DNA of 64,000 nt from an uncultured Candidatus Peribacteria bacterium (GCA_964356355.1 CAYHGX010000001.1:68299-132298); one strand, 5' to 3'; counted from the first letter of the stretch, positions 15,198 to 62,189 are shown. Numbers and translations: made by a program. Notes: a model not told the origin generated them from the letters alone.

Positions 15198-15346
15198 AAT
15201 CTTTCTTTTTTAATTTTTGCCCTACTGGTTCAATTTAAAGCAATGAAGGTGGAAGTTCAAGCTAAAGTCGTTCGCGAGCTGGATAGAAATTTCTGAAGAT
15301 CAAATTCGGATTCGAACTTTTGCAAATCATTGCTCTCAAAAGCATA

Positions 15347-15604: not shown

Positions 15605-15609
15605 TGAGT

Positions 15610-18575: not shown

Positions 18576-18636
18576 TGACTTGTTTGTATTTTCGTTTTAT
18601 AGTGAATTCTTATATTTAGATTTTACTTTAGTAGCA

Positions 18637-43593: not shown

Positions 43594-44804
43594 GTGCTGT
43601 GAATATACTTAAAGTATACTAGTAATGCAAGTAAAATTATGATTAGAGAGAGTATCAGCTCTTTGTAAAGTCCAAGGTTTAAAACTGAAACTTGAAAGTT
43701 TTTGGTCACTTCTTCTCCATTGGAATCTTTTATTGTGAGTTTAACCTTGTGTTCTCCTGTTTTTTTGAATGTGTAATTTAGGGCGTTGCCTTCTCTTTGA
43801 ATTTTGTCGTCAATTGTCCAGCTGTAGCTAACTATTTGCCCATCTTCATCAATGGAAGGAGTGGCATCAAAGGTGTAATTTTCAAATACTCCAATTTTAT
43901 CGGTTTCTTTTTTCAGGATGATTTTTGGTGCTTTGTTTATGGGGAAGGGATCTTCTTTGTCTGGAAGGCTGTCATTGTCGTCGTCGATGTCGAGGTTGTT
44001 GCCGATGGAATCATTGTCGGTATCAAGGGTTTCATTTGGATCAAGAGGGAAGGCGTCGTTTTTGTCGTTGGTACCATCTCCATCAGTATCGGCTTTAAGG
44101 GGATCAGTTCCAGAATTTGTTTCATCAATATCGCTAACTTCGTCATTGTCATCATCGGTGTCTGCTATGTTGCCGATGCCATCTTTGTCGGTATCGAGAG
44201 TTTCATTTGCATCTAGAGGCATGTCGTCGAATTTGTCTGGTACGCCGTCTCCATCGTCATCTAGGTCGGCGTTGTCTCCTTTTCCGTCTCCGTCTGTGTC
44301 ATATTGCTCTTTGCTGTTGAGAGGAAAGGCGTCTTTGGTGTCTTCAACTCCATCGCCGTCGTCATCTAGGTCGGCACTATTGGCAATTCCATCATGATCG
44401 GTGTCTTGGATAACGAAGATTTCGCTAACGATCCAATTGTTGGAGGGGTCGTCGATTTCTGGTTGCCATGGAAAAATTTTGACTGCAATTTTGTGGTTTC
44501 CGGCGGTTGGTGTCCAGTCTATAAAGGTGCCATCTGTGTTGCCTTTGTAGATGGAGACTGCTTGGTCACCGCCAATCTGCTTACTGTTGTCGTAAAAACG
44601 AACAACGCCGAGGAGGTCCTTGGTGCTGTTGTTTTTTGTGCTTGAATAGATTCTGATTGGTGAGCCTTCTAGGAACTTATCTGTTGAGAAGGTGATTTTC
44701 TCGCTGTTGATGGAGATGTCTCCGCTAAATGCTGCATAGGCTACTTGTGTAAAAGCGAGTAGAAATGCAGGAATAAGACCTAGTTTTCGTATTTTTATTT
44801 TCAT
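43560..44804 (-). CDS. Secreted, C-terminally anchored surface protein: CARDB-like domain, thrombospondin type-3 Ca-binding repeats, PKD domain
   Basis: The signal peptide reads ..AFTQVAYA. About 8 DxDxDGxxDxxD-type repeats follow ([22 protein letters not shown] and similar). A PKD-like segment ([18 protein letters not shown]) and a C-terminal TM helix complete the protein. Confidence 0.8.
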
Positions 44805-47443
44805 TATGAACTGATTAGTTCTTGTTGGTTTTCTTCAACTTCTGGTACTACATAGCCATCTTCGCCTTCTTCGATAACGTCGATGACGGAGATTCCGGCT
44901 ACTTTATCGGCAGGCTTTAGGCGCATTAGGTAAACACCTTGAGTGGCGCGGCCTTGAGAAGGGATATTCTTTACGTGTAGGCGAATTACTTGTCCTGATT
45001 TTGAGATCATGATGAGATCGGCGTTGGTGTTGGTTTCAATGATTTTGGCGCCAATGATTTTGCCGGTTTTTGTGGTGATGTTTGCGGTCTTAACTCCACT
45101 ACCTCCACGTGATTGGAAGCGGTAATCGGTAACTTTGGTCATCTTTCCGAGACCGTTTTCCATGATTACGAGCAGTTCTGCGGTTTCTGGTGCTTTGATG
45201 GCATCCATTTCCACTACTTCATCGCTGCCTTTGAGGCGGATTCCACGAACTCCAATTGAAGGACGGCCCATTGGGCGGCAATCTTCTTCGTTGAAGCGGA
45301 TGCATTTGCCTTCGCGACTTACTAGGATGATTTCGTCTTTATCTCCAACTTCACGGATCCATTCAAGTGAATCTTCGGGGCGAAGCTTGATGGCGATCAG
45401 TCCGGTTTTTCTTACATTTCCGAAGTCTTCAACTGGGGTTTTTTTGATTGTACCCATCTTTGTGGCCATGAATAGATATTTGCCACTGAATTTTTCGCCT
45501 GTAGAAAGGATGGCAGTAACGTGTTCGTCATCTTGTAGTTGTAGTAGATTTACGATGGCCTGGCCTTTTGCTGTACGGGAGGCCATTGGGATTTCGTATA
45601 CTGGAAGTTTGAAGACGCGTCCTTTATTAGTGAAGTAGAGGAGTTCATCGTGATTTTGAGTTTTCTTGATGAGTTTGATTTCGTCCTCTTCTTTGGTGGT
45701 GCCGCCGATTATGCCTTTTCCTCCGCGGTGTTGGCTGCGGAAGGTGTTGGTTGGAATGCGCTTGATGTAGTTTTCACGGCTGAGCATTACGATTACCGGT
45801 TCGTTTGGAATTGTGTCTTTTTGGGAAATGCTGTTGATAGCATGTGGAACGATTTCGGTTCTGCGCGGATCGGCATATTTTTCTTTCATTTCAGCCATTT
45901 CCTCCTGCATAATTTTGAGAACTTTGTTGACGTCGGCCAGAATTCCTTCTAGGTGCATAATAAGGGCGATTTTTTCTGCTAGTTCATCTTCGATTTTTTT
46001 GCGCTCAAGACCTGCGAGAGTTTGTAGACGCATGTCGAGAATGGCTTTACCTTGAAGCTCTGAGAGTTTGAATTTTTTCATCAGTTGCTCGAGGGCTTCT
46101 TCTTTGTCTGCTGATTTGCGAATAACGGCGATCACTTCATCGATATGATCGAGGGCGATTTTCAGTCCTTCGAGGATGTGGGCCCTGGCTTTAGCCATTT
46201 TTAGCTCGTATTCGGTGCGTCGTGTGATAACTACTTTTCGGTGAGTGATGAAGTGCTCAAGTACCTGTTTAAGGTCTAGTAGATGCGGTTGAATTTCGTC
46301 TACGAGTGCGATCATGTTCATGTTGAACGATGATTGAAGCTGTGTGAATTTGAAAAGTTGGTTGAGGATTTTTTTAGGATAACTATCTTTTTTGAGCTCG
46401 ATCATAATTCTCATACCGTCTTTGTTGGACTCGTCTCTGATATCGGTGATGCCAACTACCTTTTTATCGCGAACTAGTTCGGCAATTTTGGTGATGAGGT
46501 TGGCTTTGTTTACTTGGTAGGGGATTTCGCTAACGATGATTTCGAATTTGCCGTTTTTTCTTTCTCTGATGTCGGTGCGGCCACGAACTACCATGCCGCC
46601 GCGGCCTGTAGTGTAGGCGGTGCGGACGTCATCGATGTTGTAGAGGATGCCTCCAGTTGGGAAATCGGGACCTTTAATGAATTCCATGAGTTCTGGAATT
46701 GTGGCTTCGGGATTTTTTGAGAGGTGAATTAGGCCGTCGATAACCTCTCCAAGATTGTGTGGAGGGATGTTTGTGGCCATACCAACGGCAATACCGGTAG
46801 AACCGTTGAGGAGTAGTTGTGGGAGCTTGGTAGGAAGAACGGTAGGTTCTAGGTGACGGCCATCGTAGTTTTCTCTCCAGCTAACTGTTTCTTTTTCAAT
46901 ATCTGTGAGCATTTCGTCCGTGATTTTTTCCATTTTGGCCTCGGTATAACGCATGGCCGCTGCGCTGTCACCGTCGATGGAACCAAAGTTTCCTTGTCCT
47001 CTTACTAGGGTGTAACGCATGGCGAAATCTTGGGCCATACGAACCATTGAGTCATAAACTGCGGAATCGCCGTGGGGATGATATTTACCCAACACTTCAC
47101 CGACAACGGTGGCGGATTTTCGGAAGGAGGCTGAGGAGCGAAGACCCATTTCATTCATGGCGTGCAGGATTCTGCGGTGAACTGGTTTCATGCCGTCTCT
47201 GACGTCTGGAAGGGCTCTGGACACGATTACGCTCATGGCATATTCGAGGTAGCTGGTTTCCATTTCGTCGGAGATGTTACGTGGGCGGAGGCCTTCGTGA
47301 TTGGTGAAAAGATCGCCTTCGAGGGCGGTTTCAGTGGAGGAGTTTACGGATTCGGAGTTGTCCTCTGATTCTTGGTTTTCTAGATTTTCGTCGTTTTGAT
47401 TTTCCTCTTCTTGATCTTCTGGATTGGTATTTTCGTCTGACAC
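44804..47443 (-). CDS. gyrA: DNA gyrase subunit A with ~45-aa acidic N-terminal extension
   Basis: Motifs are [26 protein letters not shown], the active-site region AAMRYTE and the QRRGG-like GyrA box (SQHRGGKG). C-terminal beta-pinwheel repeats are present. Confidence 0.95.
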
Positions 47444-47515
47444 GGGAAGGTTGGTTAGAAATTTTCTGGGTGGATATTATCATAAAAACTTGGGTTGCGA
47501 AAATGGGGAATGTGG

Positions 47516-47543
47516 TTGACTTTGTGCGCTAATATGGTAAAGT
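47516..47543 (+). promoter_or_regulatory. Putative sigma-70-type promoter of cassette 1
   Basis: TTGACT-N16-TAAAGT is preceded by TGg (extended -10). The same architecture recurs at 48294, and similar architectures recur at 49373 and 59036. Confidence 0.45.
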
Positions 47544-47874
47544 GTGCGTCTGTGATTTTTGAAAAGTGGGCGTTCAAGATTTTAGGGATGAAGGTTTTCG
47601 TGGAAATTTTTTCCCTGAGGGTTTGACTTCGGGTTCGTTTCTTGGCTTGTAGAAGAGCTGTCTGCTGATTTCAGCGGATTGGTGCATTCTCGCTGGATAA
47701 CGATTTTGACAAGAAGGTAATAAGAAGAATTTTTGGGTTTGGTCTGTTTTGCTGGGGGCTAAGAGATTGTTATGGAAATCGTGGAGACGATTTTGTAGCA
47801 GTTTGCTAGACCCCGGCAAATCAACAGCCGGCGGCATGAGCGGGTTAGGAGCCCGCGTTTCGAAGGAGTTTGCC
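47544..47874 (+). repeat. Leader module copy 1 (AT-rich, ~330 nt), paralogous to 48322-48661
   Basis: It is colinear with copy 2 through conserved blocks: TTTAGGGATGAAG, TTTTCCCTG.GGTTTGACT, GTA.AAGAGCT, CGATTTTGACAA.AAGGT.ATA and TTAGACCCCGGCAA.T..ACAGCCGG.GGC. Both copies have a GCGGG..CCCGC hairpin just before the Shine-Dalgarno sequence. Confidence 0.7.
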
Positions 47875-48096
47875 ATGTATGGTAATCGTCTTCCGCTCGC
47901 TGTGCGTGTGATCGATGGGGACCGGGTGGTCCCCACCGATATAGTCGAGGTGCTCGGCCCGGTCCTGGGTGCCGTGGTGGGGGTGGCCATCCGGCCCACG
48001 GAGCGCGGCGAGCAGTCCCAAAAGTGGGTCTGCGGTTACGATCCCACCAAGGCCTGCTCGGTGGGTCCGAGCTGCCGCGCCGCGCGCCGCGGCTGA
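47875..48096 (+). CDS. Small high-GC ORF P1 (73 aa, 3 Cys near C-terminus), unknown function
   Basis: AAGGAG lies 7 nt upstream of the ATG. Third-codon-position G+C is 45/50 by hand count over 47944-48093, against 30/50 at second positions, which is the periodicity expected of a high-GC coding sequence. The peptide is MYGNRLPLAVRVIDGDRVVPTDIVEVLGPVLGAVVGVAIRPTERGEQSQKWVCGYDPTKACSVGPSCRAARRG. I recognise no homologue. Confidence 0.45.
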   Translation: MYGNRLPLAVRVIDGDRVVPTDIVEVLGPVLGAVVGVAIRPTERGEQSQKWVCGYDPTKACSVGPSCRAARRG

Positions 48097-48190
48097 TTTC
48101 CTAGGATCGCTACGATGCCAGGGCCACTCTTCGGCCCATTCGCGGCGCTGTTAACGTTCCTAGGCCAATCCGCACCACCCCGGCCTCTGC

Positions 48191-48256
48191 AGACCAGCCC
48201 CCGGCCGCACTCTCACGAGCGCGCGCCGGGGGCTGGTCTTGCACTTTTTTCTTTTT
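48191..48256 (+). terminator. Rho-independent terminator of cassette 1
   Basis: The 15-bp perfect stem is AGACCAGCCCCCGGC/GCCGGGGGCTGGTCT (48191-48205 and 48225-48239). It is followed by tgcacTTTTTTcTTTTT. Confidence 0.7.
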
Positions 48257-48293
48257 ACCTTCTTGTGTCTTCTAATTTAGTTGGCTTTCACCA

Positions 48294-48321
48294 TTGACTT
48301 TTTCAGTGAATATGCTACAGT
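48294..48321 (+). promoter_or_regulatory. Putative sigma-70-type promoter of cassette 2
   Basis: TTGACT-N16-TACAGT is preceded by TGc (extended -10). It is positionally equivalent to the cassette 1 promoter. Confidence 0.45.
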
Positions 48322-48661
48322 CTTCAGCTTTAGTTATTTGAAATGCAGGAAAATGTTTAGGGATGAAGTTCTTAACGCTTGAGGGCGTAGATAAGAGTTT
48401 TTCCCTGGAGGTTTGACTCTAGGATCGCATCTGGGTTTGTAAAAGAGCTATTGGCTGCTTTGGCGGCTGATCGGTGACTTTTCGCCCCCTTCGCGATTTT
48501 GACAACAAGGTGATAGAAAATTTTTAAATTGGTCTTGGCTGATTGCAGGGGTTTACGAGTTTCTTAGATGATCGTTTTATGGGCGATTTATAAGAGACTG
48601 TTAGACCCCGGCAATTGACAGCCGGAGGCGAGTGCGGGCGTAGGCCCGCGGAGATGTGCAG
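48322..48661 (+). repeat. Leader module copy 2, paralogous to 47544-47874
   Basis: It has the same conserved blocks and hairpins as copy 1, in the same order and with a similar total length. Confidence 0.7.
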
Positions 48662-48850
48662 ATGAAGGTTGCTCTTGTGGACTTCCGTGGTCAGGTGGTC
48701 GCGGTCGTGGAGTTCGTGATGATTCCGATGGGGCTGAGCGAGCCTCTGCGTGAGCGAGAAGGGCGCGATGTGCGGCCCGAGCCGCTGTGCGTGAATCCTC
48801 GTTGCCCGATCCATGGCGCCCGCAGTCAGCGGCCCGACAGCCACAACTGA
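48662..48850 (+). CDS. Small high-GC ORF P2 (62 aa, CxxxxC near C-terminus), unknown function
   Basis: GGAG lies 8 nt upstream of ATG 48662, and an in-frame GTG at 48656 is also possible. GC3 is high by eye. The peptide is MKVALVDFRGQVVAVVEFVMIPMGLSEPLREREGRDVRPEPLCVNPRCPIHGARSQRPDSHN. Confidence 0.45.
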   Translation: MKVALVDFRGQVVAVVEFVMIPMGLSEPLREREGRDVRPEPLCVNPRCPIHGARSQRPDSHN

Positions 48851-48855
48851 TCGTC

Positions 48856-48912
48856 TCGCGCCCGCGGCTTCACAGCCGCGGGCGCGATGAAGTGATCTTC
48901 TTCTTTTCTACT
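48856..48912 (+). terminator. GC-rich hairpin with interrupted T-rich tail after P2 (possibly leaky terminator)
   Basis: The 14-bp stem is TCGCGCCCGCGGCT/AGCCGCGGGCGCGA with a 4-nt loop (48856-48887). The tail is tgaagtgatcTTcTTcTTTTcT. Confidence 0.5.
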
Positions 48913-48972
48913 TCCGTTTCGAAAATCCCGGGGTTTTCTCGGGTGGTGTGCGGTCGGCCGACGACTGCGATC

Positions 48973-49230
48973 ATGGAGTGTGACATGGATTTCCGGAACT
49001 TGGAGCTGATGTTTGGAGCGATGAATGGCTTCGGGCGCGGCATGCTTGCCCATGCGGCGGAGCTCCGTATGGCCCGGGAGCGCGCGCTGGCGCGCGTCCC
49101 CGGCGCGGGCTTCGGGCCGAGTCTGCCGAGCGCGCGCCCGGCCGCCGACCGTCCGGTGCCGCCCTGCAACGCGTGGCAGCTGACCGCCCAGTCCTGGGCC
49201 GGTCAGCGCCACAGCATGAGCTGCCTCTGA
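48973..49230 (+). CDS. Small high-GC ORF P3 (85 aa, 2 Cys in the C-terminal third plus 1 near the N-terminus), unknown function
   Basis: It has a high-GC3 reading frame but no clear Shine-Dalgarno sequence or promoter of its own. It may be read through from cassette 2. An alternative ATG lies at 48985. Confidence 0.35.
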   Translation: MECDMDFRNLELMFGAMNGFGRGMLAHAAELRMARERALARVPGAGFGPSLPSARPAADRPVPPCNAWQLTAQSWAGQRHSMSCL

Positions 49231-49250
49231 GGCGGCTCACCCCGGCCAAA

Positions 49251-49320
49251 GGGGCGGCGGAATGAGGTTCGGGTTTCAAAGCCCCCTCGTCTCCGCCGCC
49301 CCTTAGGCATTTTCTTTTTC
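49251..49320 (+). terminator. Rho-independent terminator after P3
   Basis: The 11-bp outer stem is GGGGCGGCGGA/TCCGCCGCCCC (49251-49261 and 49292-49302) with further inner pairing. It is followed by ttaggcaTTTTcTTTTTc. Confidence 0.6.
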
Positions 49321-49372
49321 TATCACTTTGTTGTTTTCTCTTTTGATGGGTTGTTCTCTTGGTGGCTTGGCC

Positions 49373-49401
49373 TTGTGTTTTGGGCTGTTTTTTGGTAGAA
49401 T
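49373..49401 (+). promoter_or_regulatory. Putative promoter of the VirB4-like gene
   Basis: TTGTGT-N17-TAGAAT is preceded by TGg, about 35 nt upstream of the ATG at 49438. Confidence 0.4.
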
Positions 49402-49437
49402 AATGAGATTTAAAAGACAAAAACAAAGACCAAAACT

Positions 49438-51699
49438 ATGGCTAATGTATTTACAGACGATAAGGCGAAGAGTGATTCTGTGGCCGCTGGGGCTCCGAGT
49501 TGGCTTAAAGATGCCGATGTGATGGTGCCTGGAGCGGGAATTGCTGATGTGGCGCCTGCGGTTGCTCCTTCAAAGGACTATGAGGGTTCTTTGCCTCAGT
49601 TTCACGATGAAAAACCTACCGCAACTCAGTTGGGAGTTGATCCTGCCTCTTGGGTAGTGATTGAAAGTGCTGATAAACAGGCGGCGGAGAAAATGATGGC
49701 TGCGGGTCTTGATCCTAAAACTGGAAGGTTAATGGCGGCTTCGCAGGCTGTTGTTGAGGGAGATGATACTGGAGAAAAAAAGCTAGTAGTTGAGGGAAAC
49801 AAGGATAAAGATGGAGTACTTGGTACTTTGAAAAAATTATTTAGTTTTGGTGTGAAAAGGCCTCAGGTAGAGGGAGTGGCTGGAGCTGCGGTTCCGGTGG
49901 CTACTAAAATTGATCCTTCTGGGAAATTGACGGTTGATGAGAAGAAGAAATTTATGGAGGCTGAGAAAATCTATCAGGAGGGCTTGGCGGCGATTAAAGA
50001 TTTGATTGCGCCGGCTTCCATGGAGATTCAGTATGATAAATTGCGAGTAGATGGCATGTATTGCCAATCATTTTATGTATTTGCTTATCCTCGTTATTTG
50101 GATGCTAACTGGCTCTCTCCGGTGATCAATTTCGACGTAACAATGGATATAAGCCAATTTATCTATCCGATCAACTCGGGAGATATTATGAAGATTCTGC
50201 GCAAGAAAGTTGCACAGATGCAGTCGAGTATGCGTATGAATGCGGAAAAAGGGCATGTGCGTGATCCAGCTATTGAGACGGCTTTGGAAGATGCTGAGTC
50301 TTTGCGAACAGATATTCAGCGCGGACAGGAGAAGTTTTTCCAATTTGCACTCTATTTTACGGTTTACGCTACCAGTGAAAAGAAGCTGGAGAAGGTGGCG
50401 AAGCAGCTTGAGAGCCTTTTGGCAGGTAAATTGGTGCTTACAAAACGTGCGCAGCTACAGGCTGAACATGGTTTTAATTCTTCGATTCCGATTTGTTTGG
50501 ATCAACTTTATACGATTCGAAATATGAATACTGGGCCGCTTTCAAGTACATTTCCGTTTACCTCTTCAGATCTTACCTCTGATAAGGGTATTTTGTATGG
50601 AATTAACCGTCACAATGACAGCTTGATTATATTTGATCGGTTTGCCCTGGAGAATGCTAATAGTGTGGTGTTTGCCAAGTCCGGTGCGGGTAAGTCTTAT
50701 GCCGTGAAGTTGGAGATTTTGCGTCAGATGATGATGGGTACCGACGTGATCGTGATCGATCCGGAAAATGAGTATGAGGCGCTGGCCAATACGGTTGGTG
50801 GCTCTTATTTAAGGCTTAGTTTGAACAGTGATCGTAGAATTAATCCTTTTGATTTGCCGCGGCCGATTGAGGGTGATGATAACAAGCCTGGCGATTTATT
50901 GCGCTCTGGAATTATTAATTTGCATGGTTTGATGAACTTGATGCTGGGTAAGCTTACACCTGAAGAGGAGAGCATCCTGGATCGGGCTTTGATTGATGTG
51001 TATGCGCTAAAAGGCATTACAATGGAGACCGTGGATCCTTCGGTTTTTGAGCCCCCGACGATGGAGGATTTATACCAGATCTTGAGCTCCTTGGAGGGGG
51101 CGACTGGGCTAACTCAAAGGCTTTCTAAATATACTACAGGTTCTTATTCCGGAATTTTCAATAAGCCTACTAATGTGGATCTCTCAACCGGCATGATGGT
51201 GTTCTGTATTCGTGACCTTGAGGACGCACTTCGGCCGATTGCGATGTATATTATTTTGAACTATATCTGGAATAGCGTTCGCAGCGAGCTCAAGAAGAGA
51301 ATTCTGGTTATAGATGAGGCCTGGACGATGATGCAGCATGAGGATAGTGCAAAATTTTTGAACGGACTAGTGAAGAGAGCAAGAAAATATTACCTGGGAG
51401 TGTCAACAATTACTCAGGACGTGGAAGATTTCTTAAAGAGTGAGTATGGTAAGCCAATTATTACCAACTCCTCGATGCAGTTGCTTTTGAAACAGTCGCC
51501 TTCAGCTGTGGAGATGCTGGGGCATATTTTCAATCTTACCGATGGGGAGAAGTATGTGCTCCTTAATAGTGGTGTGGGGCAGGGCCTATTCTTTGCCGGC
51601 CAGAAGCACGTGGCAGTGCAGGTGATTGCCTCATTTACTGAGAATAAAATAGTGACTACGAACCCTGAAGAGGTGATTAAGGCCAGGGAGCAGGCTTAA
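49438..51699 (+). CDS. virB4: VirB4/TrbE/CagE-family type IV secretion-like ATPase
   Basis: Walker A is FAKSGAGKSY and Walker B is ILVIDEAW. The conserved VirB4 context includes FPF...L, NPFD and YYLGVSTITQ. The ~190-aa N-terminal region is Ala/Gly/Val/Lys-rich and has no recognisable domain. Confidence 0.85.
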   Translation: MANVFTDDKAKSDSVAAGAPSWLKDADVMVPGAGIADVAPAVAPSKDYEGSLPQFHDEKPTATQLGVDPASWVVIESADKQAAEKMMAAGLDPKTGRLMAASQAVVEGDDTGEKKLVVEGNKDKDGVLGTLKKLFSFGVKRPQVEGVAGAAVPVATKIDPSGKLTVDEKKKFMEAEKIYQEGLAAIKDLIAPASMEIQYDKLRVDGMYCQSFYVFAYPRYLDANWLSPVINFDVTMDISQFIYPINSGDIMKILRKKVAQMQSSMRMNAEKGHVRDPAIETALEDAESLRTDIQRGQEKFFQFALYFTVYATSEKKLEKVAKQLESLLAGKLVLTKRAQLQAEHGFNSSIPICLDQLYTIRNMNTGPLSSTFPFTSSDLTSDKGILYGINRHNDSLIIFDRFALENANSVVFAKSGAGKSYAVKLEILRQMMMGTDVIVIDPENEYEALANTVGGSYLRLSLNSDRRINPFDLPRPIEGDDNKPGDLLRSGIINLHGLMNLMLGKLTPEEESILDRALIDVYALKGITMETVDPSVFEPPTMEDLYQILSSLEGATGLTQRLSKYTTGSYSGIFNKPTNVDLSTGMMVFCIRDLEDALRPIAMYIILNYIWNSVRSELKKRILVIDEAWTMMQHEDSAKFLNGLVKRARKYYLGVSTITQDVEDFLKSEYGKPIITNSSMQLLLKQSPSAVEMLGHIFNLTDGEKYVLLNSGVGQGLFFAGQKHVAVQVIASFTENKIVTTNPEEVIKAREQA

Positions 51700-51756: not shown

Positions 51757-51787
51757 GTAGTTAAATACATTTTTAACAAAAACAAAA

Positions 51788-52012
51788 ATGAATACAAAAG
51801 TACACAGTTATGCAAATGTGCATCCAATGGTGGTGTTTTGGATCGGCTTGCTAACAGGTGCTATCATCGTTGGTTTATCGTTCTTTTATAGAACACTAGT
51901 ACCGGCTGATTACAATTCTTCACTGTTTAGTTATCCAACTTACAGTACAAACTTGAAGACAAGTCTTAGTCCTACTTATAGTCCAATTTCAATTACTCAG
52001 CCAATGGGCTAA
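51788..52012 (+). CDS. Small single-pass membrane protein, unknown function
   Basis: The 74-aa ORF has one hydrophobic helix (VVFWIGLLTGAIIVGLSFFY) and a Ser/Thr/Tyr/Pro-rich tail. A consensus-like promoter lies upstream. Confidence 0.45.
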   Translation: MNTKVHSYANVHPMVVFWIGLLTGAIIVGLSFFYRTLVPADYNSSLFSYPTYSTNLKTSLSPTYSPISITQPMG

Positions 52013-52037
52013 AGGTGTGGATTAAATTGTATCGTAG

Positions 52038-52070
52038 AAGAGTGAGTAGTTAAGGCTATTCACTCTTTTT
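52038..52070. terminator. Hairpin between convergent genes (possible bidirectional terminator)
   Basis: The 8-bp stem is AAGAGTGA/TCACTCTT with a 14-nt loop, followed by TTT. It overlaps the stop codon of the minus-strand 1490-aa gene. Confidence 0.45.
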
Positions 52071-55000
52071 ATGCTGGGAAGTGACGTGAGCTGATTGTAG
52101 CTGTCAACATTGCTTCGAGTTCATCCGGGTCTGCCAATTTTTTTAATTTAGCCTTGAGTATATTTCTCTTAACTGTTTTTCCGTTTTCTGTGGTTTCTGC
52201 TTCTATTAGTCTATCAAATTCTGTGGCTATTTCTGCCCGTTTTTCCCTGAATAATTCAATTAATGAGCGGAATCCTTCGAATTTTCTTTCAACTTGGCCG
52301 GAGTTGTCTACATGTCTAAAGTTTTCATCTTGAATTCTGGTGATTCCACGTGTAATTGATATGTTTGTTAGGGCGGGGAAGCTTGTCAGATAGTATCCAG
52401 GTTTTTCTGAGTCTTTTAATTCGGGGATTAGAGTACCTTGGAGATCCTGATCTGTAATATTTAGTGTTTCGATGAATTCCAAGATCATGGCAATGCTTGG
52501 TAGGATATAGTAGCTGAATTCACCTGAAGGGTCTTTGGTAAAGTATCCTTCCATCTTAGGGGTGTTGAAATAGGCGAAATCTTCCAGGGCATCTTTTAGG
52601 TATGGTATCATTTCATCTTTGATACGCTTAAATTCTTTAGCTCTATTTGGATTTGCGCTGGCTGTAATTAGCTCCTGATTGTAGGTTTGCACAAGTAGGC
52701 TTACTGCTCTAATTCTTCCAAAATGTAAAAGTAGATGGTATTTATCGTTTGGGTCTACGTTTTTAATAAGTGGAAAGCCTTCTTCATTGCAGGTAGTGAT
52801 TGCTTGTGAAATTTTTTGTCTATTGAAAGCATTTGTAGGTAGTGGTTCTGTTTCTGCGGTATTTGTTTCGTCGGGATATTTTGTTTTGCTGGTTGCCATC
52901 ATTAAAAGTGCTAACATTTTTTGGTAGGCAAAGCGTGCAGCTTGGCGCGATAGTCCAATCTGATTGCTAATTCTCCAGTTTTCGCCGTAGCCTATTGCAG
53001 CTCTTTCATATTCTCCGCAATAGTCGTAGGTTTGGGCCAATAATTCCAGGAATGCTACGTCATCGATGGGGTCGAAAATTAGTGGATTGGTTTCTCGGGC
53101 TTGTCTTATTGCATCTAATTCGTGACGTAAATTAATGAGAATTTTAGTTTCTTTTTGATTGAATAATGAGGGATCTACGGCGCCATCATCATCTATACTT
53201 TGGCGGGTTTTTGGTTTACGAACAGTGCATTCGAATAGATATCTTTGATATAGCAATTTAATTTTGGCGTAGGTTTTTGGATCTGATTTGGCTATTTCCT
53301 GTATTTCAGGTTTTTCTAGCGAATATTTTTGAAGCCATCCTTCAAGGGCGGCTACGATATTTGATATGTTACTTACTTCATCTCCGTGATCGCAGGCTCG
53401 AGCCTCATGTTGCATTTCAATTGTGAGTAGGTCTCCAGGGGTGTAATTTCCACGACTATCTTGGATTTTTTTGAAATATGAGTTCATCTTGACTCTTTTT
53501 TCTGCGTTTCGAATTTGAGATTCTTCCATTGAGGCCATGCGGAAGCCCATTTTGTAGGCTTCTAAAAGTTTTGGGTTTTCTGGATCTTGGGTATTGGTGC
53601 AGATTGCTTCCAATGTGTCGATTGCAGCGTGGACTCTTGCGAATTGACCGAGATTGGCTCCGCTTTCGATGTAGGTGAGGAGTGCGGATTTGATCAATAT
53701 AATCATTTCTTCGGTGGTGGACTGTTCTTCTTCTGATTTTCCTGAAAGTACGATGGGGTGCTCTTGTAGTTCTTGGATTAATTTTGCAGCTGCGGTTTTG
53801 GCTTTTGGATCTAGATTGCAAAGAATGGCTGAGGCGTGTGCTAATCCTTTGGCATATTGTCTGCCTTCGTGGTCTTTTTCTAGTACGGTAGTTGCTTTTC
53901 TTGTGTAGGCAGCCCAAACTTTGCGGTGAGCTTTGTTTCTGAGGGTTGAGGTTTCGGTTGCGGCTTGGAGCCAGCTGAATTTTACTTCATCTGGAACATT
54001 TGAGTCGGCCGATATTCTGCCATAGTGTTTGAAAACTAGTTTCTGTTTTTCTTGAGGAGGGATTGAGTCCTTGATGGCTTCGCCAATTGTTTCATTTGAA
54101 AGTTCATAGGCTGTGGTGATGCCATTGTTATCTACGATTTTAGTGAGGTAGTCTTGTTTTATTAGTAGATCTATTATTGCAATGGCCTCTCCGCCGATTT
54201 TTCCTGTTTCTTCGGCAGTGATCTCGAGTAATCTTCTTACGGTAAATGGGGTGCCGGTCATGGCAACTAATCGAAGAATAGAGAGGATTTTTGGTTCAAG
54301 TTTTATGATTCTGTTTCTTTCATGTTGGATTAGATCTTCTTGGTTGTTGATTTTTTGAAGTTCCTCGAGTGCTGCGTTGGTAAGTCCAATTTCATTTTCT
54401 CCGTAGGTGAGAAACTTATCTGGATTTCTTAAGAGAATGTTTATTAAGCTGGTGAATCCCCATGGAGTTTGGATTTTATTTGCTAGCATTAGGTGCCAAT
54501 CGTTGGTAAAGGTTTTTCTTTCGCCGGTTGTGCTATTTAGACACTTTTCTTCTGGAAGTGAGTAGAAAACGTAGTCTGCGGCAGTTTGTGGATCTTGTAA
54601 ATTGAGTTTTGGCGTGCCGGTTTTTTCATCTTGGAGCCAAATTGTTTTGACAGCTTTGGGACCAAAGGAAGATCCAAGATTGGCTTCCATGGCGGTTTGT
54701 TTTGTAGATTTAAATCTATCTTCTGGCCTCATGGTGGCAATGATGCGGCATTGGGTTTCTCTTAGTACTGTTTCCATGATTTTCATGATGTGTTCATCGG
54801 AGTGGGCGTCGATGTGGTGCATATCATCTAGGACGATGGGGAAAGAACCAAAAATTTGTTCAAATGCACTGATGGCACCGATGATCTTTGATACTAATTC
54901 ATGAGGTTTTGTTTGTGCTAAGTGTAGTCTTTCTCCGGGAGAAAGGCTGCATATTTGCTGTAGCGGAGCGAGCAGTGCTTTATATTGATCTGCTTTTGCA

Positions 55001-56541
55001 AGGTCCTTTATTTTACTTTTTGCAAAGGCATCGAGCTGTTCAATAATATTGATCAGGGCCATGCCGGGGAGCTTCTCGCAGGCTGGGTCGATGCTAAGGA
55101 TCATCGCGCCTGGGTTCTCTTTCATTAGTTCATCCAAAATACGTGATTTTCCGATACCGGCTTTACCTTTTATTATGGTTAGTTTCGTTCTGCTTTTTGG
55201 GCCAGTTCCTTCTCTTAATTCTTCTAAAACATCCTGTTGTCCGATGAGTTTTCTAGGGCCTCCACCTACTCTAAGAGTGGCTTCTCTGACAACGTCTAGA
55301 ATGCGGTAGTATTTTGTGCCGGGTATTTTTTCTACTTTTAATTGTGAAGTAGTGTTTTCGCGGCTCCTTAGTTGTTTTTCATAGGTTTCTTCATCGATAA
55401 TATAGTCGGCCTTGTTTTCTCCTTCACCTAGCTTTGACCATTGGATAAGCTCTTGTGTGGAGAGGTAGTCGTTCATTTTCAATCCTTCTTCGGATTGAGA
55501 AAGCGTTCCTTTTCCAAAGCGGAGATGGGCTTTCCCTTGAGTTTTTTTGCGTATACCTAGTCCAAAATTTTCCAAAAAACCGCTGGCGCGTTCTTGTAGT
55601 GCGATGATTACAATGTTGTCCATGCTATCTTTTTTGACAATAAAGCCATCAGAGCGGGAAATTGCCGCGATATCATTTAGGATGTGGACGATATGGGGGA
55701 AGCCAAAATTGCTACCTTGAAGGATTATATGTGGATTGATCACTAAGTAACTGACGCTGCCAGTGGCATTGGTTTCTTTTTCGTTGGGCTTTTTTTCTTC
55801 TTCTTTTAGTGAGTTGATTGTTCTTGTTGATGTGTTTAGGTCTGGTCCAAATTTTTTGGCAGTGGTTGGAAGGAATCCATCTAATGAATAACTTGTGACT
55901 GGGTCATTGTCTCTGGTGCCAATTGTTAAAGATTGTCTGTGGGCAGCCACTTTTCCAGGTTTTGGTACGTCTAGTGTCTCTCTGTAAAGTGTTGGGTTGC
56001 AAGCAATAAATGTGGAGCCGATTCTTAATACTAAGTGCCCTTTGGGATCAATAGTAGTAGTTACTTTTGATTCAATATTAAGATCGGTTAGAGCCTGGTA
56101 AACAAGTAATGCATTTATGTGGCTTGGGATGAGTTCTTGAATAGTGACGATGTCGTCCTGGTCGTTCATTATGGCGCCGTGATCCGTGTTTAGGCTTAAT
56201 CCAAGCCTGTTCAGGGCGGTTTGAACTACGGGAAGGTTTTCTCTTTTGAAACTGATGCGCATTATTTGATATTGCTCTGGAGTAATACTTAATGAATGAG
56301 GATCATGAAGGTGGCAGATAGCGAGAGGTTGAAGGTGTGGAGAGAGTTTTTGCACCTCTTCAGCTAAAATCATCGATCCCTCTGTTAATTGAGTGGAAAT
56401 TTCAGAGACTATTGTTGTTTTAAAAGGATCAACATCTGGTTTGCTGTAGAGATCTGGTCCCTTTGTATTGATAGGGGCGAACTCAAGATCTCTTCTTGTT
56501 GGTATGGCAATTGGGCTAATTCTTGAATCTGGGCTGGCCAT
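52069..56541 (-). CDS. Large STAND/AAA_16-like P-loop NTPase with unassigned ~440-aa N-terminal region and long helical-repeat C-terminus
   Basis: The protein is 1490 aa. Walker A is IIKGKAGIGKSRILDEL and Walker B-like is FPIVLDDMHHID. About 800 aa of helix-rich, TPR-like sequence follows. I recognise no motif in the N-terminal 440 aa. Confidence 0.75.
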   Translation of the reverse strand: MASPDSRISPIAIPTRRDLEFAPINTKGPDLYSKPDVDPFKTTIVSEISTQLTEGSMILAEEVQKLSPHLQPLAICHLHDPHSLSITPEQYQIMRISFKRENLPVVQTALNRLGLSLNTDHGAIMNDQDDIVTIQELIPSHINALLVYQALTDLNIESKVTTTIDPKGHLVLRIGSTFIACNPTLYRETLDVPKPGKVAAHRQSLTIGTRDNDPVTSYSLDGFLPTTAKKFGPDLNTSTRTINSLKEEEKKPNEKETNATGSVSYLVINPHIILQGSNFGFPHIVHILNDIAAISRSDGFIVKKDSMDNIVIIALQERASGFLENFGLGIRKKTQGKAHLRFGKGTLSQSEEGLKMNDYLSTQELIQWSKLGEGENKADYIIDEETYEKQLRSRENTTSQLKVEKIPGTKYYRILDVVREATLRVGGGPRKLIGQQDVLEELREGTGPKSRTKLTIIKGKAGIGKSRILDELMKENPGAMILSIDPACEKLPGMALINIIEQLDAFAKSKIKDLAKADQYKALLAPLQQICSLSPGERLHLAQTKPHELVSKIIGAISAFEQIFGSFPIVLDDMHHIDAHSDEHIMKIMETVLRETQCRIIATMRPEDRFKSTKQTAMEANLGSSFGPKAVKTIWLQDEKTGTPKLNLQDPQTAADYVFYSLPEEKCLNSTTGERKTFTNDWHLMLANKIQTPWGFTSLINILLRNPDKFLTYGENEIGLTNAALEELQKINNQEDLIQHERNRIIKLEPKILSILRLVAMTGTPFTVRRLLEITAEETGKIGGEAIAIIDLLIKQDYLTKIVDNNGITTAYELSNETIGEAIKDSIPPQEKQKLVFKHYGRISADSNVPDEVKFSWLQAATETSTLRNKAHRKVWAAYTRKATTVLEKDHEGRQYAKGLAHASAILCNLDPKAKTAAAKLIQELQEHPIVLSGKSEEEQSTTEEMIILIKSALLTYIESGANLGQFARVHAAIDTLEAICTNTQDPENPKLLEAYKMGFRMASMEESQIRNAEKRVKMNSYFKKIQDSRGNYTPGDLLTIEMQHEARACDHGDEVSNISNIVAALEGWLQKYSLEKPEIQEIAKSDPKTYAKIKLLYQRYLFECTVRKPKTRQSIDDDGAVDPSLFNQKETKILINLRHELDAIRQARETNPLIFDPIDDVAFLELLAQTYDYCGEYERAAIGYGENWRISNQIGLSRQAARFAYQKMLALLMMATSKTKYPDETNTAETEPLPTNAFNRQKISQAITTCNEEGFPLIKNVDPNDKYHLLLHFGRIRAVSLLVQTYNQELITASANPNRAKEFKRIKDEMIPYLKDALEDFAYFNTPKMEGYFTKDPSGEFSYYILPSIAMILEFIETLNITDQDLQGTLIPELKDSEKPGYYLTSFPALTNISITRGITRIQDENFRHVDNSGQVERKFEGFRSLIELFREKRAEIATEFDRLIEAETTENGKTVKRNILKAKLKKLADPDELEAMLTATISSRHFPA

Positions 56542-56651
56542 AGGGCTGGTTTATTTTTAAGGGGTTATCCTAACATTTTTGAGGAAATAGGCAAGTGGAA
56601 TTGAAAAAGTGGTGGTTTTGTGTTATAATTTGAAGATTAATTTGATCTTAA

Positions 56652-59027
56652 ATGAGTGATCTTGGTAGGCAAAATTTGGCGGCGCGGATCTTTAAAGGGG
56701 TGATTTTCGCCTTGATTTCTTTTGGAATGGTGGGTGGAAATTTTTTGATAGAGGGAAAGGCTTATCAGGAGGCGCCAAAAACTGAGGGAAAGCTGGTTGC
56801 TTTTGATTATGGGAAGGATAATTTAATTGGAGAAGATGGAATTATCAGATTTGATACTGAGGTGCCAAAGCCGGATATGCAGGTGGTAAAGGCTGAAAAT
56901 GGATATGTTTTTAATTTGAAAAATGGTCATTTTTGGGGAAATTTTAGGCTGAGCGATGATGGTGTTGCAATTGTCTCCGACAGAGTGGTTGTTGTACCTG
57001 ATCATGCTGTTTTTGATGCTTCTTTCGTGAGTGGCAAATTGGAGCTGGCTGTGTATTCCGGCGATGTTTATTTGGGATTTTTGCCTGAGGGGGTTGATGT
57101 GAAAGAGCAGGTCGATGCTTATAGTGGGGTGTTTATGAATCGTTTATTGGTGGCTCAGGGGAACAAAGTTACAGTAACGATGTCTAAGGTTACTGATCAA
57201 ATTAGGCCGCTTTTGTATTCTAAGTTGGTGAAGGAGTTTAAATATATTCAGATTTCTGCTGAGCAGCGTCAAGGGCCTTGGGTGTTGAAGAATCTGGCTT
57301 TTGATACACAGAATCGAGAAAATCGAAAGCATCAATTTGAGTCAGAGGTGATTTTGCGTGGTTCGAGTGCCAGTGAGGGGTTTGTGGCGAGTATTTTGCA
57401 ATGGACACAGGCTAATCTTACTTTTATTCCCGATAAGCGTCAGAAAATTCAGTTGAGAAGGCTCTTTGCTTATTTGGAGGATGCCATCTATTATGCGAAG
57501 TCGGGAGATTTGGAGCAAACAAAGCAATATCTTAATGATTTTGACGTTTATATTACTGATGTGGAGTTTACCTCTGGTGAGGAAAATGGGTTTCATCATT
57601 ATTTTGAGGAATATGTGAAGGGTTTGAATGTTTTTGAGCCTGGTGATGCCTATTATGAGGTTGAGAAATTTTTATTAAATAAACAGTTTTTTTCTAAGGA
57701 TCAGCAGGGGCTGGTGGTTGCGGCTTTTTGGCAGGATGTGTATGAGGCGATTGGGAAAAATGAGGTAGCTGCTCGTGAGTCGTTGGACAATTATTACAAC
57801 TATTTGGATAAGTATTTAGTTATTTTAGAAGGTGGCGATCAGGCCTATTATCAAAATTATTTAGCTTATCAGAATCAGCTTTTTGATAATTTGTTGTTAA
57901 AATATCCGGTCTTTTATCAAGATTCGTATTTTGCGATTAAAGATGCTTTAGAAATGCGTTATTTGGCTTTGTTCCAGGGCCATGACAAGGAGGAGATGAG
58001 TCAGGATTTTATCAGTGAAAAGATTGATTTCCTTAGAAGGGTGAAGAAATTTTTCTTTGATGGGTCAATTCAGATCGTTGATGCGAAAAAGGTATTTTCA
58101 AGGCTGATTGCTGAGATTGACGCCTTGATGCCTAAAGATAAGGGTGAGGTGGCAGTAATTGCGCTTTTTGAGTCTCGACTTAAGGATATTGCTGATTTCT
58201 GGGGGTATTTAAGTAGTCCTCAGTACCAAACAAAGGCGAGTGGAGTGACAGAGGAGGATAGATATAATACCTATTTAAAGGAAAAGGATAAGATTTGGAG
58301 TTTTGTGAATATTCGGGAGGATGTGTTGGGTGAAAAAATTCAGAAATCAATGACAGTTGCGGATGTGAAGGACGAGGTGATAAAGCAATTGATGATTTCC
58401 CAGGGGGTTTCGAGCGTTGAGGTTGGGGAGATTAAGGACGCTGGAGATAGGTATATTGATGTAAACTTAGTGATTAGTGGTTATCCGGTGAAGGCGGTGT
58501 ATGATCGCGTGACTACTTTAGTGAAGGAGGTAACGGCTTATGATAAGGATATTTCTAAGGGTAGTGTGAAGGTGGAGGCCTTGTTGGCTGTGTTGCAGGA
58601 TAAATTTGCGGATTTGGCTAAAGATAGTTTGGCAGCCAAGGATGAAGGGGTTTCAATTGAGAGTACAGCGCAGAGGTATGCGCGGGTGTATATTGCGAAG
58701 GTGCTTGCTGATGAGGGATTTGTGGTTGAAATGAAAAATGTGAGTTTGGTGGATGAGGAAAAGGCCATTTATCGGGTACAGGAAATTACTTTATTGGCTA
58801 ATGAGGCGATGGTGGTAACCTTTGATTTGGATATGAAGGGCGAGGTTGTGACTAATCTTTTTGTGATGAATAAGGGCGAGCCGCAGCTAATTGATGGTGC
58901 TTTTACGTTGGCCGAGCTAAAGGCTTTTATTCAGGCTGATGGCAAGATTGATAAGGGAGAGCCGTTGGTAGATGGTGGTGCGGCGAATCCAAGTGGGCCT
59001 AGTGCTGGTGGAAAGGTGTCGAGGTAA
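56652..59027 (+). CDS. Membrane-anchored hypothetical protein (791 aa)
   Basis: After an N-terminal TM helix (VIFALISFGMVGGNFLI) comes a beta-rich segment faintly FecR-like (GYVFNLKNGHFWGNF...VVVVPDHAVFDASF..GKLELAVYSGDVYLG). A long helical region and a Gly/Ala/Pro tail complete the protein. Confidence 0.6.
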   Translation: MSDLGRQNLAARIFKGVIFALISFGMVGGNFLIEGKAYQEAPKTEGKLVAFDYGKDNLIGEDGIIRFDTEVPKPDMQVVKAENGYVFNLKNGHFWGNFRLSDDGVAIVSDRVVVVPDHAVFDASFVSGKLELAVYSGDVYLGFLPEGVDVKEQVDAYSGVFMNRLLVAQGNKVTVTMSKVTDQIRPLLYSKLVKEFKYIQISAEQRQGPWVLKNLAFDTQNRENRKHQFESEVILRGSSASEGFVASILQWTQANLTFIPDKRQKIQLRRLFAYLEDAIYYAKSGDLEQTKQYLNDFDVYITDVEFTSGEENGFHHYFEEYVKGLNVFEPGDAYYEVEKFLLNKQFFSKDQQGLVVAAFWQDVYEAIGKNEVAARESLDNYYNYLDKYLVILEGGDQAYYQNYLAYQNQLFDNLLLKYPVFYQDSYFAIKDALEMRYLALFQGHDKEEMSQDFISEKIDFLRRVKKFFFDGSIQIVDAKKVFSRLIAEIDALMPKDKGEVAVIALFESRLKDIADFWGYLSSPQYQTKASGVTEEDRYNTYLKEKDKIWSFVNIREDVLGEKIQKSMTVADVKDEVIKQLMISQGVSSVEVGEIKDAGDRYIDVNLVISGYPVKAVYDRVTTLVKEVTAYDKDISKGSVKVEALLAVLQDKFADLAKDSLAAKDEGVSIESTAQRYARVYIAKVLADEGFVVEMKNVSLVDEEKAIYRVQEITLLANEAMVVTFDLDMKGEVVTNLFVMNKGEPQLIDGAFTLAELKAFIQADGKIDKGEPLVDGGAANPSGPSAGGKVSR

Positions 59028-59078: not shown

Positions 59079-61019
<1,941 letters not shown>

Positions 61020-61076: not shown

Positions 61077-62189
61077 ATGAAAAAACTGCTCTTACTTTTG
61101 TTGAGTGCTGTGGTTTTTAGTGGTTGTGTGGGGGTGGAAACTAAGGAGACTATTGGGTGTGCTTTACCTCCTGATGCGAATGGACAGCCGAATGTGGGCT
61201 GTGAATTGCCGAATGTTGCGGATCCATCTGCGATTGTTCCTCCTCTAGCAGTACCGGTGGTAAGTGTCACTGAGCCTCGTGATTATCTTTTTACGGCAAG
61301 TTCCACTTTGGTAGACGATACGAATATTGGCTTTAACTATGAGCCGGCGATGGTGTCGGATGGGGATTTTTCTACGGCTTGGTGCAGGGCGTCTGGCGAT
61401 ACTAAACCTTCGATTGTTTTTGATTTTTCACGCCCGGTGAAGGCGGATAAGTTTGGAATTGTGCCGGGCTTTGCGAGGGATGAAAAAATTTACAAACAGA
61501 ATAATCGCATAAAGAAGGCAACTTTGTTGTTTGATGATAAGGATCCGATGGAGGTCGAGTTTAAGGATGAATATGGCATGCAATTTTTGGTTTTGGATGG
61601 CAAGGAGTTTTCAAAAATTAAATTGGTGATAGATGATGTGTACAAGGGAAATAAATATGATGATACTTGTATTTCGGAGTGGGATTTTGCGAGTGATTAT
61701 GTGCAAAAGGGGGATAGTGCTGCAGCAATGAATTTTTACGTGAAGGAGAAGAAGGCTGATGCGTTGAGGCCATATGATATAATAAATGTTGTGGATTTTT
61801 CTATGGATCCACCTGATAAGTGCGGTAATCCTGTGAGGGGTTATTCTGATCCGGCTAGTGCGGAGGCTGGTTATGCTATGCTTTGGGATTTGCCTGTTTA
61901 TTTAAGTGCATCTGTTAATGAATTTGGTAGGGAGGGCGATAAAGTTGAGGTGCGATGGTATAGTGATCAGTTGAAGCTAGTTGGAGATGACGTTGTTCAT
62001 CAAGGATATATTTTAGAAACGGTGCAGAAAGATGTTCCAGTTATTAAAGCTTGTGATGGAAAATTGTATGTGCACACAAGCTTATATGACTTTTCACATA
62101 ATAACTTGATGTGGGATGGTAAGGATAAGGCTGAGATTTATTCTCAGGGCAAATTTGTGGGATTTGGCTATTTTAATTTGAGTCAGTAA
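61077..62189 (+). CDS. Lipoprotein with galactose-binding/discoidin-like domain
   Basis: The signal peptide has a lipobox (LSAVVFSGC). The segment DGDFSTAWC...IVFDF...V..DKFGIVPGF.....Y..NNRIKKATLLFDD resembles NAD-glycohydrolase-associated or F5/8-type-C-like beta-sandwich domains. Confidence 0.65.
   Translation: MKKLLLLLLSAVVFSGCVGVETKETIGCALPPDANGQPNVGCELPNVADPSAIVPPLAVPVVSVTEPRDYLFTASSTLVDDTNIGFNYEPAMVSDGDFSTAWCRASGDTKPSIVFDFSRPVKADKFGIVPGFARDEKIYKQNNRIKKATLLFDDKDPMEVEFKDEYGMQFLVLDGKEFSKIKLVIDDVYKGNKYDDTCISEWDFASDYVQKGDSAAAMNFYVKEKKADALRPYDIINVVDFSMDPPDKCGNPVRGYSDPASAEAGYAMLWDLPVYLSASVNEFGREGDKVEVRWYSDQLKLVGDDVVHQGYILETVQKDVPVIKACDGKLYVHTSLYDFSHNNLMWDGKDKAEIYSQGKFVGFGYFNLSQ

Follow-up and report, generated by a model that had tools for sequence, protein, structure and literature searches.

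Bacterial STAND proteins (signal transduction ATPases with numerous domains) comprise defence and non-defence clades that are interspersed with one another, and among their sensors those resembling tetratricopeptide repeats (TPRs) predominate (PMC12803255, PMC13581612). Two described groups come closest to the gene treated here. The AAA_16-TPR signalling STANDs, a clade that includes the MalT/AfsR-like regulators, carry the motifs G.AG.GKS, hhhDD/EDhH(H/W)xD and RPE, and place an output-type domain N-terminal to the NTPase. The Avs/AVAST and NLR-like (nucleotide-binding, leucine-rich repeat receptor-like) defence proteins, in turn, combine a variable N-terminal module, a STAND NTPase and a large sensor of helical repeats. 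It is common for a STAND protein to have an N-terminus that no known domain accounts for. The present gene lies at 52069..56541 on the minus strand of a 64,000-nucleotide stretch of DNA (the window) from an uncultured Candidatus Peribacteria bacterium (GCA_964356355.1, CAYHGX010000001.1:68299-132298), and the public runs that contain the window sequence are freshwater lake and groundwater metagenomes. The host is a Peregrinibacterium of the Candidate Phyla Radiation (CPR), and the genomes of CPR bacteria, or Patescibacteria, are tiny. The STAND gene is linked to a convergent gene for a small membrane protein, and the reading favoured here, with a probability of roughly 0.4, is that the two form a lineage-private NLR-like conflict module, directed against phages or other invaders and derived from the AAA_16-TPR clade.

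Compared with the AAA_16-TPR signalling STANDs, the family to which this protein belongs has a homologous nucleotide-binding domain, helical domain, winged helix and first TPRs, the same motifs, and its own additional region in front of the NTPase. It differs from them in N-terminal domains that are unrelated in every sequence test, in having no helix-turn-helix (HTH), and in its small membrane-protein neighbour, its patchy occurrence within one lineage, its frequent duplication and its very fast evolution. With the Avs and NLR-like defence proteins it shares, besides the layout, an accessory distribution, rapid divergence of the sensor and, in some genomes, nearby restriction-modification (R-M), PARIS or CRISPR genes. 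Contrary to these proteins, it matches no Avs or NLR model of PADLOC, has no known effector fold, shows no sign of horizontal spread beyond one lineage and is absent from the viral contigs of IMG/VR; moreover, it is accompanied by a partner gene for a small membrane protein instead of carrying a fused effector as Avs proteins do. Its divergent tandem paralogues, termed a and b and found in at least eight loci, recall the paired sensor and helper NLRs of plants. This is a resemblance only: both paralogues keep their Walker A and B motifs here, and the window genome is single-copy.

The STAND open reading frame (ORF), stop codon included, starts with ATG and encodes 1,490 residues without interruption. 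As it extends over 4.5 kb in DNA of 42% GC and has about 50 relatives with intact catalytic motifs, it is far beyond chance. Its full length and its start (MAS) are kept in the closest homologue, P0002. The tripartite layout given in a preliminary description of this DNA, made from the sequence alone, also holds, with an N-terminal region of about 425 residues, an AAA_16 domain above the Pfam cut-off and about 850 residues of helical TPR-like repeats. All parts lie on the minus strand. A leader rich in Pro, Asp and Thr (residues 1-60; 56362..56541) is poorly conserved and probably disordered, its predicted local distance difference test (pLDDT) score in AlphaFold2 (AF2) being below 35. It is followed by the domains D1 (residues ~80-190; 55972..56304) and D2 (residues ~255-360; 55462..55779), the nucleotide-binding domain (residues 427-620; 54682..55263), the STAND helical and winged-helix domains (residues 621-850; 53992..54681) and a TPR-like alpha-helical solenoid, the presumed sensor (residues 851-1490; 52072..53991). 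In a lake metatranscriptome (X10), two contigs of 151 nt match exactly, one inside the STAND gene (54521-54671) and one over the junction at its 3' end (51964-52114); they suggest that this gene and its small neighbour are expressed, carry-over of DNA being also possible. An apparent replacement of the N-terminal region between strains was rejected, since the signal consisted of low-coverage gaps and spurious 35-nt matches, and a complete contig from run X4 has 6 single-nucleotide polymorphisms in the gene.

AAA_16 is the only Pfam family recognised in the protein (residues 432-585, E 1.4e-8, 35.8 bits against a cut-off of 32.6); NACHT and nSTAND3 give faint matches at the P-loop that stay below threshold. 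A GGPxxLIG motif precedes the P-loop, Walker A (GKAGIGKS) occupies residues 459-466, Walker B (IVLDDMHHID) residues 569-578, and the sequence ATMRPED residues 602-608, of which 605-608 are the RPE(D/E) motif. Essentially all of the roughly 50 members, both tandem copies included, retain an intact Walker A (G.AG.GKS), Walker B (hhhDDhHHxD) and RPEE, and the proteins count as working NTPases. The NTPase core is intact and under purifying selection. Across 28 members, Pfam finds AAA_16 in 25 and AAA_22 in 22, and NACHT, NB-ARC, NPHP3_N and TPR sporadically. The sole matches of the family profile outside the family are AAA_16+TPR proteins whose N-terminus holds a class III cyclase, Ser/Thr kinase or Trans_reg_C domain. 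When the 28 members are aligned by hhalign with eight such cyclase-, kinase- or HTH-bearing proteins (P0003-P0010), the probability reaches 99.1% (E 8e-19, 629 columns), and the alignment, which opens at residue 427 in the nucleotide-binding domain ('GGPDxLIG'), takes in both Walker motifs, RPEE, the helical domain and the winged helix ('YLFKHAL...') and reaches into the first repeats. Because of this match from the nucleotide-binding domain to the repeats, the family is placed, as far as profile comparison goes, as a divergent branch of the AAA_16-TPR signalling clade.

Structure predictions complete this picture for the C-terminal part. The models were made from an input of two sequences and reach a pLDDT of 35 for the N-terminal region and of 50 for residues 431-1490, with the nucleotide-binding domain unfolded, so that results from AF2 and Foldseek are taken as hints and not as evidence. 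The region after the NTPase, about 850 residues, is predicted as all-helical, with an HHH-EE winged helix around residues 750-815 at a pLDDT of 70-79, within the best-modelled part of the protein; residues 621-850 also align with the '...YLFKHAL.R..AY..L' region of AAA_16-TPR proteins. The top Foldseek matches of this low-confidence C-terminal model are TPR proteins (LGN) and alpha-solenoids only, at template modelling (TM) scores of 0.1-0.3. The solenoid (851-1490) ranks among the stretches that diverge most between STAND orthologues.

PADLOC recognises 0 families in the STAND protein, and its 28 relatives give scattered, near-threshold matches to non-Avs models in single members only, so that membership in the Avs family, a candidate in the preliminary description, is not supported for the protein or for any consistent subset of its relatives. 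Neither terminus of the protein matches an HTH family in Pfam, be it GerE, Trans_reg_C or another, and a single insignificant match to HTH_92 appears among the 28 relatives. As for the MalT/AfsR alternative, the module of NTPase, winged helix and TPRs is homologous to that clade, while no DNA-binding domain is recognised, as had already been noticed.

The N-terminal region sets the family apart. In alignments it consists of four parts, namely the leader of about 60 residues, D1, a variable linker and D2. D1 is an alpha/beta domain with the predicted order beta-alpha-beta-alpha-beta, seen only in this family and missing from the shorter a-type paralogues. D2 is equally private and occurs family-wide, with the pattern C.YL.ID ... 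S.DF.IT.D..GNLVIIAL.ER.GG ... lG.G, in which R318 is invariant and G345 nearly so, and after it comes a 'GRD.T' element (R394). The order predicted for D2 by AF2 is beta-alpha-beta-beta-alpha-beta, which by eye is like the cyclase/GGDEF palm (beta1-alpha1-beta2-beta3-alpha2-beta4). Residues 1 to about 425 have no match in Pfam, NCBIfam, PADLOC or PDB sequences, even when sub-sequences are searched with Pfam at E<=10, and these sub-sequence searches do not reveal a class III cyclase domain (PF00211) before the NTPase either. Across the 28 members Pfam finds nothing N-terminal to the NTPase, and the family profiles match PDB sequences at the P-loop only. No nuclease, TIR, SIR2, protease, kinase or HTH domain was recognised in this region with Pfam, NCBIfam and PDB sequence searches. 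Its lack of nuclease, TIR, SIR2, protease or kinase motifs and its unassignable character had been correctly reported from the sequence, and neither profile nor structure searches assign it to a housekeeping or regulatory domain. A profile of residues 1-450 of the two closest sequences, used in an exhaustive HMMER search of 1.84 billion cluster representatives, yielded 28 proteins at E <= 1e-3, nearly all of 1,200-1,600 residues and with the region at their own N-terminus. This makes the region private to the STAND family.

For the N-terminal model (pLDDT 35), Foldseek aligned about 80 residues with ferredoxin-like folds (PII-like, ACT/RAM, EF-G) at non-significant values (E >= 0.07), and the N-terminus appears to consist of two small alpha/beta domains, possibly of ferredoxin-like fold. 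The candidate identification of D1 and D2 as degenerate tandem cyclase-homology domains was rejected at the sequence level: in hhalign comparisons based on up to 28 sequences, both gave a probability below 1% against the cyclase domains of P0003-P0010. D1 and D2 show no mutual similarity by the same method, again with a probability below 1%.

The second gene of the module (51788..52012, plus strand) is new here and lies just outside the coordinates of the preliminary description. It encodes a 74-residue single-pass membrane protein and is convergent with the STAND gene, from whose stop codon 56 bases separate it. An 8-bp inverted repeat (AAGAGTGA / TCACTCTT) is located between the two stop codons, at 52038..52067; its loop measures 14 nt and a run of T comes after it, so that it is a possible shared terminator of both genes. 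Because the RNA contig at 51964-52114 crosses this repeat, at least one transcript may read through it. A conserved core of the form HP.v.FW.GlLTGA..VgL.FFYR..P.DY.S is common to the small proteins, and Ser, Thr and Pro abound in their tails. Of 119 such proteins, about half end within 4 residues of P-x-G, and there the ending takes the form phi-(P/G)-(T/D/S)-P-x-G-(G/N), often in two copies. Examples are ..FPTPPGG, ..LPTPTGN and ..IGDPSGN, and the protein of the window ends in ITQPMG.

A convergent small gene is found at the 3' end of the family members in every inspected locus but one (L026). A hidden Markov model (HMM) of the core, applied to the ORFs of all six reading frames in the window and in 88 loci, matched STAND-bearing loci only, some of them with two tandem copies, and gave 0 matches in the roughly 65 loci without a STAND gene. 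The sole ambiguous case is L022, whose contig stops right past the small gene. Two copies lie in tandem downstream of the STAND gene in L001 (7162-7604), and two are also present in L004, L007 and L040. In a database of 5.8 billion proteins the small-protein family comprises at least 158 clusters, all of them hypothetical proteins of 70-140 residues for which Pfam has no family, and those with a source name come from Peregrinibacteria, Gracilibacteria or Patescibacteria. Four homologues were chosen from long contigs regardless of context, and all four have next to them a convergent gene for a family-type Walker A/B protein of 1,275-1,850 residues. The surroundings vary and include the slot beside VirB4 and S41 genes described below, queuosine and pentose-phosphate genes, type IV pilus genes, major facilitator superfamily (MFS) transporters, and a threonyl-tRNA synthetase (ThrRS) with a PrsW protease. 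Because the pair stays linked in unrelated genomic contexts, the STAND gene and the small gene behave as one cassette.

The small ORF is also supported by variation between strains. Run X4, from another lake study, contains a near-identical strain with 19 differences over 5 kb, of which 13 fall within 150 nt at the small gene (51761-51910). Because 10 of the 12 coding changes are synonymous, the ORF is a real, constrained gene, with a short recombination tract.

The family is rare and patchily distributed. A word-indexed search of the 5.8 billion proteins returned the STAND protein itself and one homologue, P0002, from an 8.7-kb contig (L001) with the same gene order. Querying this database with the family profile added no further homologue, and a pattern scan of GTDB with the two-sequence alignment gave none. 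With tblastn over the 80 VirB4-anchored loci described next, homologues at 22-29% identity were found in L004, L006, L007, L008, L016, L026 and L040, together with a contig-end fragment in L015. Synteny was examined in 80 Peregrinibacteria loci anchored on a VirB4-like gene, the best 80 of 190 GTDB relatives; these VirB4-like proteins are 65-82% identical to that of the window, and nearly all carry the label Peregrinibacteria, Peribacteria, Gracilibacteria or Patescibacteria, which places the window in a CPR bacterium. Across the 80 loci the order gyrA, VirB4-like gene, S41 peptidase (SLH-PDZ), U791, gyrB is kept, U791 being a protein named after its 791 residues. The VirB4-like gene is directly followed by U791 in 9 loci, where the slot is empty; the S41 peptidase alone stands between them in about 35; and one or two family STANDs lie between the peptidase and U791 in about 10. 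The loci with an occupied slot are L004, L006, L007, L008, L015, L016, L019/L089, L026, L040 and probably L022, and most copies of the family sit in this one variable position between core genes. Because presence and absence alternate within the sub-lineage closest to the window, the STAND gene is accessory.

Tandem paralogue pairs of about 25% identity occur in L004, L007, L040, L084, L085, L089, L092 and L093, while the window genome has a single STAND copy. The a type has a short N-terminus, and the b-type copies with an available N-terminus (L084, L093) have both D1 and D2. The viral contigs of IMG/VR contain no relatives of the STAND protein or of the small protein, and by this result a phage origin of the cassette was rejected.

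The STAND family also holds the fastest-evolving gene of the neighbourhood, at about ten times the pace of its neighbours. Between the window and L001, the amino acid identity is 51-53% for the STAND protein, with 0.39 nonsynonymous substitutions per site (dN), compared to 61-62% for U791 (dN 0.30) and 96% for the VirB4-like protein (dN 0.035). Between L004 and L040, the values are 63% (dN 0.28) for STAND-a, 80% (dN 0.127) for STAND-b, 85% (dN 0.084) for S41, 95% (dN 0.029) for the VirB4-like protein and 96% for gyrA. The solenoid of STAND-a has a hypervariable patch in this one pair, at residues 1100-1400, where identity falls to 29-37%. The gene-wide ratio of nonsynonymous to synonymous (dS) substitutions is 0.12-0.2 for the STAND genes against 0.02-0.08 for the neighbours, ratios that are indicative only, dS being saturated (1-2.4). 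Diversification by a diversity-generating retroelement (DGR) or by repeats was rejected, as the STAND gene has no direct, inverted or tandem repeats and no template/variable pairs.

In a few relatives the same region of the genome holds known defence genes. In L019/L089 the order is VirB4-like gene, HsdM, RhuM, HsdS, a PARIS AriAB fusion, HsdR, S41, STAND, small gene, STAND and U791; the AriAB fusion is recognised by PADLOC at E 4.5e-111, and the type I R-M operon (L019, 12449-21447) is one gene away from the STAND array. In L054, from a metagenome-assembled genome of Peribacteria, an insertion at 8464-14882, downstream of the VirB4-like gene and in the same variable region, holds a gene for Cas12a (Cpf1; RuvC_1, REC1 and PI domains) and after it three further ORFs, of 220, 180 and 321 residues. 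A mad3-like ABC ATPase is found two genes from a family member in L088. In L021, the slot between S41 and U791 holds an unrelated AAA_16 STAND of 1,496 residues (14232-18719, minus strand), without BLAST similarity to the family and without the small partner gene. R-M and PARIS, Cas12a and mad3-like genes thus occur at a few loci, and most other loci have no known defence gene. Homologues often sit in one and the same slot between core genes, but this slot is patchily occupied and also receives R-M/PARIS and Cas12a, a pattern that does not refute the earlier proposal of a defence or signalling protein. This association with defence genes at few loci is suggestive.

In the window itself, the cassette lies between gyrA (44804-47443, minus strand) and the VirB4/TraG-like ATPase gene (49438-51699, plus strand) on one side, and U791 (56652-59027, plus strand) and gyrB (59097-61019, plus strand) on the other. 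Beside gyrB, a 370-residue protein with a 'NAD glycohydrolase translocation F5/8 type C' domain (PF25302, E 2e-21) is encoded at 61077-62189 (plus strand), and prmC is among the further flanking genes. U791 has an N-terminal membrane anchor and belongs to no Pfam or PADLOC family; its gene, which is outside the module, is separated from the STAND gene by a divergent intergenic region of 110 bp (56542..56651). It stands directly upstream of gyrB in about 50 of the 80 loci, yet diverges fast, and is thus a lineage-wide protein without a family; an X10 contig of 151 nt also falls on it (58713-58861) with two mismatches. Functional dependence of the cassette on the VirB4-like protein, S41 or U791 was rejected, as these genes are conserved without it and the cassette is also found elsewhere.

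Two observations concern the window at large. The gap between gyrA and the VirB4-like gene (47444-49437) is about 2 kb without a credible ORF, in which the GC content rises in places to 64-78%, against about 42% elsewhere. Within it lie three palindromic stretches and a 260-nt direct repeat whose copies are 70% identical and 790 nt apart. No meaningful Rfam match was obtained for it, and in other Peregrinibacteria loci its DNA is conserved for the last ~45 nt only; it could be a structured RNA or a mobile remnant. The GC skew is very strong and positive throughout, at 0.12-0.45 in every 2-kb bin of the window (1-64000), with a monotonic cumulative curve that continues over minus-strand genes, which puts all of the window on a single replichore of unusually large strand asymmetry.

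A conflict sensor is ranked first among the possible functions because of the intact switch, the private N-terminus, the linked membrane gene, the accessory and duplicated status, the fast divergence and the region shared with R-M, PARIS and CRISPR genes. The same features also agree with the published interspersion of defence and non-defence STAND clades and their mostly TPR-like sensors (PMC12803255, PMC13581612). According to this proposal, the solenoid would bind a trigger, which might be a foreign protein or else a change in its small membrane partner; binding would lift autoinhibition and lead to NTP-dependent oligomerisation; and the clustered D1 and D2 would deliver the output, be it an enzymatic or binding activity or an action on the membrane through the partner protein. 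TPR domains typically bind short terminal peptides. As the conserved phi-(P/G)-(T/D)-P-x-G-(G/N) peptide at the end of the small proteins resembles such ligands, a guard or tether model with this peptide as the TPR ligand is attractive. A more specific and rather doubtful version is that of a CPR immune module in which D1 and D2 represent a new effector fold, the STAND protein guards the small protein or acts via it, the solenoid reads its C-terminal peptide, and the a and b paralogues work as a sensor and helper pair. The adjacent single-pass membrane protein is itself a possible candidate effector.

Several points weigh against a conflict module. Pfam, NCBIfam and PDB sequence searches find no recognisable effector domain, the AF2 models being of low confidence (pLDDT 35 and 50), and PADLOC has no match for the STAND protein. 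The nearest relatives outside the family are signalling or regulatory STANDs and not known immune ones, known defence genes lie near only few of the examined loci, and the family often occupies a single syntenic slot beside envelope genes (S41/SLH peptidase, VirB4-like ATPase and U791). It seems to be restricted to Peregrinibacteria and related Patescibacteria, a distribution that fits a physiological role as well as defence. The tempo of evolution indicates relaxed or diversifying change, positive selection being unproven with dS saturated. As for the partner, convergent orientation is unusual for functionally linked genes, and the topology of the small protein, which has on average 1.7 Lys and Arg residues on the N-terminal side of the membrane segment and 1.3 on the C-terminal side, is ambiguous, so that contact between its tail and the TPRs may be sterically impossible.

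Some of these points lead to the main competitor, a non-immune signalling STAND, which is a possible though not a likely explanation. Here the small protein would relay a signal from the envelope or from cell contact, the TPRs would sense it, and D1 and D2, as a module specific to the lineage, would provide an output or bind a ligand; they could be a cyclase-homology domain, or another ferredoxin-like one, that has diverged too far to be recognised. The 99.1% hhalign match to the signalling clade, in which an output domain takes the same N-terminal position, speaks for it, as do the envelope-related neighbours, the restriction to one lineage, the beta-alpha-beta-beta-alpha-beta order predicted for D2 and the weak ferredoxin-like hints from Foldseek (PII, ACT, RAM), which concern the moderately modelled N-terminal part only. 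However, hhalign gives less than 1% probability for D1 and D2 against cyclase domains, and the patchiness, tandem duplication, tenfold faster divergence than in the neighbours and hypervariable patch in the solenoid would be unusual for housekeeping signalling. Adjacent R-M/PARIS and Cas12a insertions in relatives also speak against it. A transcription factor of the MalT, LuxR or AfsR type is highly improbable: it would belong to the same NTPase clade, but neither end of the protein has an HTH, and the one HTH_92 match in the relatives is insignificant.

The frequent place of the cassette between the VirB4-like gene or S41-SLH peptidase and the fast-evolving, membrane-anchored U791 raises a different idea, that of a host-interaction factor in episymbiosis, in which a fast-evolving cytoplasmic regulator and a surface-exposed small protein would act with the VirB4-like, S41 and U791 machinery. 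In the small protein, the Ser/Thr/Pro tail and the motif at its end look like those of an extracellular or processed peptide, which would agree with this. However, about 70 loci conserve the flanking genes while lacking the cassette, and it also occurs apart from them, which argues against dependence on that machinery and makes such a role unlikely. A place among the described Avs/AVAST or bNACHT families, with an effector of known type, would agree with the layout of N-terminal effector, NTPase and repeats. It is largely refuted, and correspondingly very improbable, by the missing PADLOC match for the protein and for any consistent set of the 28 relatives, by the missing Pfam effector domain and by an NTPase of the AAA_16-TPR clade. 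The remaining probability is spread over other functions.

A fast-evolving STAND cassette of 4.5-9 kb suggests a lineage-specific strategy of sensing or immunity that lies beyond defence catalogues such as PADLOC. The family offers two uncharacterised N-terminal domains, seen nowhere else in 1.8 billion representative proteins, as well as natural pairs of a and b paralogues and a strictly linked small membrane protein with a conserved terminal peptide motif, a kind of partner that would be out of the ordinary among STAND proteins. If the module is defensive, it would extend NLR-like immunity to episymbiotic ultra-small bacteria, maybe with a new type of effector; if it serves signalling, it would add a new output module to the AAA_16-TPR switch.

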